Positions 41,091 through 41,322 of a stretch of 64,000 bases of DNA are shown piece by piece. Position numbers and translations under genes: made by a program. The stretch's first letter is position 1. The number at the start of each line of letters is the position of its first letter. Source of the stretch: a virus (taxonomy: Duplodnaviria > Caudoviricetes); IMG/VR virus record IMGVR_UViG_3300035698_027145, positions 828-64,827 of that record; one strand, given 5' to 3'. The notes under the pieces are model-generated. The model was not told the DNA's origin, searched no databases, and was given only the letters and a program-made list of their open reading frames with translations.

Positions 41091-41118
41091 TTGACAAGTG
41101 AAAGTGATATAATATAGT
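41091..41118 (+). promoter_or_regulatory. Sigma70-type promoter
   Basis: TTGACA-N16-TATAGT upstream of the structured non-coding segment. Confidence 0.6.
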
Positions 41119-41124
41119 GTAAGA

Positions 41125-41322
41125 GTGAATGCCGAGTGTATGTTGCGTTTCAGAGTCGTTACCTTAAGTAATGTGGTGGAGTTGCGTTTTTGGTTATTGC
41201 CTTAAGCACACGCCCTAGAGTAGTTGCCTTTAGCAACTTGGTGGATCTGTCGGTTATTGGATGTCTTACTATTCAGTTACTTGGCCCCGAGAAGAGTCGT
41301 CCTACAGGGCGGCTCTTTTTTT
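41125..41322 (+). ncRNA. Putative structured ncRNA with repeated CUU[A/U]A-loop hairpins
   Basis: GC-richer island between a promoter and a terminator (41292-41322); closing helix 41131-41138/41278-41285; three related hairpins with compensatory changes. Confidence 0.65.

Follow-up and report, generated by a model that had tools for sequence, protein, structure and literature searches.

The DNA analyzed here, referred to throughout as the window, is a stretch of 64,000 nucleotides (positions 828 to 64,827) of the IMG/VR virus record IMGVR_UViG_3300035698_027145, and the element in question is a putative small non-coding RNA encoded at about 41124-41322. Every gene in the window lies on one strand. 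The major head (capsid) protein (phrog_2522), encoded at 34756-35628, is 55% identical to its counterpart in Bacillus phage G (497 kb), with other cultured phages far more distant. As this identity is accompanied by a CheckV completeness of only 14% for the 64.8-kb record, the window is a fragment of an uncultured phage-G-like giant phage, and since its capsid protein is closest to that of a Bacillus phage, a Firmicute host is likely. The RNA lies in an intergenic gap of 283 nt, flanked by a sulfotransferase-like gene (40395-41084) on one side and by a gene for a 2H phosphoesterase (41368-41889) on the other. The features of the locus are as follows.

41091-41118 (+): promoter, with -35 TTGACA at 41091-41096, a 16-nt spacer starting AGTGAAAGT, and -10 TATAGT at 41113-41118.
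41131-41138 (+): 5' arm GCCGAGUG of a closing helix, paired with 41278-41285 in the minimum free energy (MFE) fold of the window RNA.
41152-41180 (+): unit 1, consisting of AGAGU, the 6-bp stem CGUUAC/GUAAUG, the loop CUUAA, and UGGUGGA.
41181-41216 (+): linker of module 1, with a degenerate 3-bp hairpin at 41198-41208 (loop CUUAA) and the C-rich end ACGCCCU.
41217-41245 (+): unit 2 (the "last unit"), consisting of AGAGU, the 6-bp stem AGUUGC/GCAACU, the loop CUUUA, and UGGUGGA.
41256-41277 (+): second conserved hairpin, 7 bp (41256-41262/41271-41277), loop GUCUUACU; helix 2 of the RNAalifold structure.
41278-41288 (+): segment containing the 3' arm UACUUGGC of the closing helix (41278-41285), which overlaps the unpaired C-rich GGCCCC (41283-41288).
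41289-41322 (+): intrinsic terminator with a 14-bp stem, a 4-nt loop and 7 U; the stem-loop is 41289-41320.
41190-41381 (+): open reading frame (ORF) of 63 aa with a TTG start, overlapping the RNA and judged non-coding.
41323-41367 (+): spacer before the 2H gene, with the motif AAAGG..TTTTGTCGAAA about 10 nt 5' of the ATG and no Shine-Dalgarno sequence.
41368-41889 (+): 2H phosphoesterase of 173 aa, a neighboring gene outside the RNA.

The initial annotation had proposed a structured RNA equipped with a dedicated promoter and terminator, and both were borne out. The promoter is of the sigma-70 type, matches the consensus at 11 of 12 positions and is the sole site on the + strand of the 64 kb to reach at least 11/12, while the terminator combines its 14-bp stem with a run of seven T residues in the DNA. 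Transcription would start at about 41124-41126. The two 29-nt units are 79% identical to each other and are the only matches in the window to their joint pattern even when three mismatches are allowed, with none expected from 100 shuffles. Comparison of their stems revealed two double changes (basal C-G to A-U and inner A-U to G-C) and one change from G-U to G-C, in agreement with the compensatory A-U to G-C exchange that had been annotated between the two repeats. The eight nucleotides that open unit 1 (AGAGUCGU, 41152-41159) recur at the start of the terminator 5' arm (41293-41300) as direct repeat D7.

Three further elements of the annotation stood only in part. The sequence GGTTATTG, said to follow each unit, was located at 41192 and 41252, its only two occurrences in the window, but the 8-mer by itself is at chance level (1.69 copies expected, and two or more copies in 52 of 100 shuffles). 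The third hairpin is at 41198 as proposed but has a stem of only 3 bp. The closing helix, with eight pairs of which two are G-U, does form in the MFE fold of the window, together with the hairpins, but inspection by eye of the MFE folds of 10 relatives revealed no equivalent helix between leader and pre-terminator region. The energy of the single-sequence fold is itself unremarkable (z = -1.78, with 13 of 200 shuffles folding equally well), and the case for a structured RNA therefore rests on the comparison of relatives.

Relatives were sought by several routes. Among 50,697 GenBank phages, DNA similarity was limited to chance matches of 20-22 nt, and single-protein searches of IMG/VR with both flanking proteins gave no match. 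An early IMG/VR pattern combining GGTGGA with GGTTATTG returned 81 chance matches, none with a hairpin, and a version based on CCTTWAG returned two matches, both within a coding region. An improved unit pattern identified one related IMG/VR record, with no further copy or array, and the unit pattern was absent from 185,579 prokaryote species (one genome each). The neighboring 2H protein proved a better handle. It has 85 homologues with identities from 94% down to 35%; 32 of these were aligned (alignment A1), and a search with A1 yielded 80 IMG/VR loci and 75 metagenome loci. Inspection of the 330 nt 5' of the 2H gene in 46 loci placed the RNA immediately upstream of that gene in L086 (of which L236 is a duplicate), L165, L167, L172, L181 and L203. 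A search of the loci for the hairpin plus its flanks recovered a second copy in L086 and added L168, L171, L177, L182, L185 and L188, in which the RNA precedes the 2H gene at a distance of 0.5-1.7 kb. The family thus totals 14 distinct members, the window and 13 uncultured relatives. One related IMG/VR phage record carries exactly two paralogous copies of the RNA about 1.7 kb apart. With R1, a covariance model for the 3' module built from the 14 sequences, the window reached 95.1 bits, while scores for the 13 relatives were 71.9-105.9 bits, with E values from 4e-14 to 6e-22 over 351 kb of related loci. The members found in these searches come from a narrow group of giant phages, all uncultured, with Bacillus phage G as a cultured relative.

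Members of the family share a fixed order of parts: promoter, variable leader, one to four units, second hairpin, unpaired C-rich stretch and terminator. The 29-nt unit has the consensus AGAGU, 6-bp stem, pentaloop and UGGUGGA, the loop being CUUAA in most units, CUUUA in two and CUCAA in one. A single unit is present in L086B, L172, L188 and L203, two units in the window, L086A, L167, L168, L171, L182 and L185, three in L165 and four in L181; L177 is cut by the end of its contig. The suggestion of a multivalent RNA in the initial annotation is backed by this range. Conservation within the family is highest in the last unit (alignment A2), and in the same alignment the central C columns of the C-rich stretch, which reads GGCCCC in the window, show little or no variation. 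The second hairpin always follows the last unit and has 7 bp, with a loop consensus among the relatives of approximately GUUUUACC. The 5' arm of the terminator starts with AGAGUC and so resembles a unit.

Internal units often carry a hairpin and a C-rich end of their own, so that the true repeat is a module of about 65 nt. Internal modules were recognized by model R1 with scores of 33-43 bits (window 41152-41216, L168:1197-1266, L165:1227-1320 and L181:2800-2859), the window segment being aligned as a whole module (33.1 bits, E 7e-6). Within it the 3-bp hairpin at 41198 occupies the slot of the second hairpin in other modules. The repetition of GGTTATTG and the weak hairpin at 41198 are accounted for in this way, as both belong to module 1 of a duplicated ~65-nt module. 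Units start 65 nt apart in the window and about 35-70 nt apart in the relatives, with unrelated hairpins in between; the gap from one unit to the next is 36 nt in the window and between units 1 and 2 of L165, and only 6-15 nt elsewhere. Three minimal variants consisting of promoter, one hairpin and terminator were also found (L176:55-104, L168:322-375 and L172:2284-2340).

A further cassette at L181:1040-1203 contains no ORF and has the same class of promoter and an AGAGUC-type terminator around a different body. A hairpin that follows AGAGUU in this cassette presents GGUGGAA in its loop. It is possibly a far-removed paralogue of the RNAs described here, and its loop hints at GGUGGA as the presented motif.

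The comparative evidence for structure was strong. Statistics for the unit stem were computed from 27 units, 23 of them distinct (alignment A3). In this alignment 99.3% of cells were paired as opposed to 74.8% in shuffles, and the covariation score was 0.742 as opposed to 0.260, a value reached by none of 500 shuffles. Double changes were observed in five of the six pairs, with the basal pair occurring as A-U (10), C-G (7) and U-A (4), and the loop-closing pair of the 23 distinct units as C-G (15) or G-C (7). When the partner strand was slid by 1-3 columns, pairing fell to 16-51%. The 3' module as a whole comprises 25 pairs in three helices, of which 96% of cells were paired and 16 pairs had changed on both sides, again with 0 of 500 shuffles scoring as high. 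Within it, the second hairpin (helix 2) was paired in 91.8% of cells with 6 of 7 pairs changed on both sides, and the terminator (helix 3) in 96.4% with 6 of 12 such pairs. The structured RNA with covarying repeats that had been annotated is therefore upheld by comparison. G-U pairs are common both in the unit stems and in the 3' module; because a G-U pair turns into a mismatch on the opposite strand, the constraint acts on the + strand RNA and not on a palindrome in the DNA. While the stems vary freely in sequence in alignment A3, the loop and flanks are conserved, which is the pattern expected of sequence-specific recognition of a presented motif. Pairing between GGUGG and the C-rich stretch was considered by eye only and is not claimed, both being nearly invariant and hence uninformative for covariation.

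That the region is instead a gene for a small protein, either the 63-aa TTG ORF or another short ORF, is scarcely credible. The 63-aa frame does span the region, and tblastn similarity was obtained in the relatives, as would be expected of any conserved DNA. Yet the frame is not kept in 12 homologous regions, where the longest ORFs are 14-56 aa in differing frames and positions. Insertions and deletions of whole modules and the compensatory changes in the stems also speak against coding, as do the TTG start, the lack of an evident ribosome-binding site by eye and the reading of the frame through the terminator.

Searches for known RNAs were negative. No Rfam 15 family reached its gathering threshold over the whole window; the best sub-threshold match was rnk_pseudo (32.8 bits against a threshold of 55), in an alignment that rests on the terminator hairpin and U-tail. 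ARAGORN found no tRNA or tmRNA gene in the window, in keeping with the annotation of the locus as something other than a tRNA. The family is missing from Rfam 15 and is thus previously uncatalogued. A limited literature search, in which sequence motifs are not searchable, found no account of it. Repeated protein- or RNA-binding modules in phage small RNAs are already known; what is new is a modular architecture of variable unit number in phage-G-like phages. From the promoter, the terminator and the covariation, we consider that window positions ~41124-41322 very probably specify a real, independently transcribed, structured non-coding RNA of about 200 nt that is expressed and acts in trans.

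A number of specific identities were considered and rejected. Among the Rfam matches of the window at E up to 10 there was no 6S RNA, type III antitoxin, Csr/Rsm, RsaE or T-box family. The 6S-like RNA suggested in the initial annotation was abandoned, as 6S RNA is a single long interrupted helix with a central bubble resembling an open promoter, whereas short hairpins in series make up the fold seen here. Its other suggestion, that CCUU motifs pair with AAGG Shine-Dalgarno sequences, did not survive comparison either: CCUU is replaced by GCUU in about one third of units, and the loop CUUAA alone is kept. A Csr/Rsm sponge does not fit the loops CUUAA, CUUUA and CUCAA, or a GGA that occurs once per unit and 3' of the stem. 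A riboswitch or attenuator leader was rejected given that the 2H gene follows only 7 of the 14 RNAs and that the next gene in L182 is convergent. With regard to the hairpin as an operator on phage mRNAs, the + strand of the window contains, besides the units, only two hairpins that share their loop, and neither of these has the flanks. Several ideas were considered by eye only and are not claimed: UGGU and the CUN triplets of the loop as a tRNA 3' end or T-box, with no T-box Rfam match; loop-loop kissing through the self-complementary UUAA core, which is broken in CUUUA loops; and a three-state attenuator in which AGAGUCGU of the unit competes with the terminator 5' arm. The same applies to likenesses with protein sites of the triplet-repeat type, with ribosome-binding sites, with a packaging RNA and with the geometry of CRISPR repeats of the hairpin type.

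The promoter and terminator are kept across the family, the layout of TTGACA, AGTGAAAGT.. and TATAAT in 11 of the 13 members that have their 5' side and the terminator in all 14. Elsewhere in the window, promoters of the same class (up to three mismatches) were found at 35697, 51208 and 52359, all before protein genes: the first two precede LAGLIDADG homing-endonuclease genes and the third a small ORF. Because the class also precedes such genes, it is the promoter of moron-like cassettes. A fourth and more divergent copy was noted by eye before a small ORF near 39351. A recurring grammar of intrinsic terminator, ATGTCCAAAAATAA and a promoter TTGAnAAGTGAAAGT..TATAAT was seen at window 35650-35773, 39320-39417, 51100-51256 and 52359-52437. 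The LAGLIDADG genes behind these promoters are at 35774-36538 and 51257-52369 (Pfam LAGLIDADG_2, phrog_11023), and the remaining two promoters drive small capsid-fragment-like ORFs at 39418 and 52438.

The gene downstream of the RNA is less constant. It is the 2H gene in 7 of the 14 members and another gene starting MNWYK or MNWYN in four (L086B, L171, L177 and L185), with other arrangements in the remaining three. In L182 the next gene is convergent and encodes 361 aa on the - strand (1937-3022), so that the RNA of this locus cannot be a leader. This gene, L182:1937-3022 (-), is glycoside-hydrolase-family-15-like and has been inserted between the RNA and the 2H gene, and the RNA terminator in L182 serves convergent transcription. 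The MNWYK-type downstream genes lack a Shine-Dalgarno sequence and have a conserved T-rich..GYCGAAA element about 10 nt 5' of their ATG; the GYCGAAA-type motif also stands before MNWYK-start genes that have no RNA (L178, L182, L186, L188 and L194). A T-run with GYCGAAA, often after AAAGGTATTTTT, was seen at window 41323-41367 and 36480-36555 and in L165, L167, L171, L177, L178, L181, L182, L185, L186, L188, L194 and L203. The motif is a candidate for a separate phage-specific promoter of the downstream genes, which would give leaderless mRNAs.

These arrangements bear on whether the RNA acts in cis, as a leader whose nut/put-like or attenuator-like hairpins would be recognition sites through which a phage factor enables RNA polymerase to pass the terminator and enter the downstream late genes. 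Such a role would suit a locus where a promoter leads into a structured leader and a terminator, and where a gene on the same strand follows after another 45 nt. It would also suit a window in which all genes share one strand, and AGAGUCGU, common to the start of unit 1 and the terminator 5' arm, could compete for the 3' arm. The variability of the downstream gene (2H in seven members, other in four, none or different in three, and convergent in L182) makes the proposal improbable, as does the conserved motif of the downstream genes themselves, whose distance from the ATG is constant whether or not an RNA precedes it. The terminator is moreover long, conserved and followed by 7 U, and no riboswitch, T-box or leader family of Rfam was matched at threshold.

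The 173-aa neighbor passed the Pfam thresholds for 2_5_RNA_ligase2 (36 bits) and Acb1 (27.9 bits against a cut-off of 27), and the nearest solved structures to the profile of its family are Acb1 proteins, matched weakly (E 1.6e-4). "Acb1-like" is a fair description, although the protein may alternatively be an RNA-repair-type 2H enzyme. The adjacency of RNA and Acb1-like gene that had been annotated holds for the window but not for the family, the gene lying directly downstream of only 7 of the 14 RNAs. In a number of loci (L182:1366-1755 and L165, L167, L168, L171, L172 and L188) the -35 region of the RNA overlaps the 3' end of a small ORF, the product of which has a conserved, basic C-terminus. 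Its homologue in L181 is not adjacent to the RNA, and the ORF is missing from the window. In L182 the product has an N-terminal FeoA domain (Pfam E 1.9e-20). Elsewhere in the window, a gap of about 980 nt at 46269-47247 contains no + strand ORF of at least 90 aa. A strong terminator (47163-47195) closes this gap, which may accommodate small genes or a further non-coding RNA.

With respect to function, a base-pairing small RNA (sRNA) was considered, in which UGGUGGA and/or the C-rich GGCCCC would serve as seeds for host or phage mRNAs while the hairpins and terminator stabilize the molecule. We regard this as somewhat unlikely. The conserved motifs do lie outside the covarying stems, the 3' end is a terminator hairpin with a U-tail as in trans-acting sRNAs, and the C-rich stretch between the last two hairpins is present in all 14 members. 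However, no complement of UGGUGGA was present on the + strand of the 64-kb window, which represents about 14% of the genome, and exact antisense matches extended to no more than one 12-mer, located within a coding region, for which the rough chance expectation, made with no shuffle control, is ~0.6. Repetition of one seed 1-4 times would also be unusual.

We favor, tentatively and as a possibility that falls short of being probable, an early multivalent RNA acting in trans as a decoy or sponge for an RNA-binding protein. Under this proposal host RNA polymerase would make the RNA abundantly from its sigma-70-type promoter, and the RNA would act in trans. The conserved single-stranded flanks of the unit, together with its loop, would be docking sites for one RNA-binding protein, of host or phage origin, which the multivalent RNA would titrate. 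The number of units, from one to four, would set the capacity for titration, and since the copy number varies, selection on that capacity is suggested. An RNA-binding protein of host defense or regulation would be the most attractive candidate for the partner, because the RNA is a moron-like cassette and stands in half of cases beside an Acb1-like anti-signaling enzyme.

Several observations weigh against the decoy proposal. The RNA is dispensable, being missing both from a related 90-kb IMG/VR fragment, in which no R1 match exceeded 18.7 bits, and from the complete genome of Bacillus phage G, where the best R1 match (24.5 bits) was driven by the terminator; no homologue of the 2H gene was detected in phage G either. 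All 14 members are close relatives, with 2H proteins 51-93% identical to that of the window, and the conservation of sequence is for this reason partly a matter of shared ancestry. Multivalency is not obligatory, as four members have a single unit and the three minimal variants one hairpin. No protein gene strictly co-occurs with the RNA, and the conserved single-stranded motifs would suit a base-pairing seed equally well as a protein site. Classic sponges also bear many more sites than the one to four of the phage RNA.

The non-coding RNAs of giant phages, which are themselves mostly known from metagenomes, are almost unexplored. The family described here has covariation support, defined borders and a 29-nt unit, and its natural variants with one to four units form a series for tests of binding and dosage. 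If the RNA is a decoy for a host defense or regulatory protein, it would add an RNA-based form of counter-defense in giant phages of Firmicute type and a bait for its target. Even as an ordinary sRNA, it would be the source of a first grammar of promoters, terminators and cassettes in these phages.

Of the known sponges, CsrB and RsmZ-type RNAs carry GGA sites in hairpin loops, usually in far larger number. The phage RNA is similar to them in having a short motif repeated on or near hairpins, an intrinsic terminator and a number of sites that varies among homologues, but differs in its CUUAA loop, in having its only GGA outside the hairpin and in having only 1-4 sites. Firmicutes sRNAs such as RsaE/RoxS use C-rich seeds. 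The phage RNA shares with these a small number of hairpins followed by a terminator, conserved unpaired C-rich stretches and a likely Firmicutes host phylum. In contrast to them it is phage-encoded, its conservation is highest in the hairpin unit with the G-rich UGGUGGA and not in the C-rich stretch, and Rfam gave no RsaE match.

A narrower form of the decoy proposal, which we consider rather unlikely, would have the RNA act as a tunable decoy for an RNA-binding host immune protein, namely a repeat-binding Cas protein or an abortive-infection endoribonuclease, expressed early from a host-type promoter within an anti-defense island that includes the Acb1-like enzyme in phage-G-like phages. Mimicry of a CRISPR repeat and mimicry of a type III antitoxin are specific versions of this decoy idea. 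In the former, the units would be solitary, crRNA-like repeat units of an RNA anti-CRISPR (Racr) that trap repeat-binding Cas proteins. Racrs are described as repeat look-alikes located just 3' of a promoter, without linkage to cas genes, and are highly expressed and dose-dependent, acting as decoys for RNA-binding immune proteins (Camara-Wilpert et al. 2023, PMC10651486). The locus shares with that description a small non-coding phage RNA just 3' of its own strong promoter, which at 61 nt from unit 1 is within the ~250 bp used for Racrs, and a 29-nt unit of repeat size with a central hairpin and single-stranded flanks of 5 and 7 nt. No cas-like gene was found among the neighbors scanned with Pfam or PHROGs (a subset of the window ORFs), some gaps are of spacer length (36 nt), and the RNA adjoins a gene of anti-defense type. 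The proposal is nevertheless quite improbable. The unit pattern had no match in the 185,579 species genomes, among which the true host may be unrepresented, and a looser pattern matched at least 120 stretches, those listed having only single chance matches without a hairpin and none having two. No array was found in IMG/VR, and the "spacers" are conserved structured hairpins, the other gaps being 6-15 nt. Compared with Racrs as described in that source, the RNA is distinct in having no resembling CRISPR repeat among those searched and in joining several units with other conserved hairpins in one transcript.

In the second version the units would be a pseudo-ToxI-like mimic of a type III antitoxin and neutralize a ToxN-like abortive-infection endoribonuclease of the host, a proposal that we regard as highly doubtful. 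The units are not of fixed length or arranged head to tail, their spacing being ~35-70 nt, and the Rfam matches with E values of 10 or less included no type III antitoxin. What is encoded downstream is a 2H phosphoesterase and not a protein of the ToxN, AbiQ, CptN or TenpN type; its gene often occurs without the RNA and has its own upstream motif. Pseudo-ToxI titrates a host endoribonuclease by mimicry, and in escape mutants of phage TE its 1.5 repeats had grown to 4.5-5.5 (Blower et al. 2012, PMC3475682). Measured against that account, the phage-G-like RNA differs in its non-tandem units without a fixed period, in its 2H phosphoesterase neighbor and in its lack of an Rfam ToxI match. Were it nonetheless a tunable decoy for a host immune protein, its unit number of 1-4 would record an arms race of dosage, as has been seen experimentally for pseudo-ToxI. 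With pseudo-ToxI and toxIN, as described in the same source, it shares its layout: a non-coding phage RNA of units whose number varies among relatives, followed by a terminator and then a gene.

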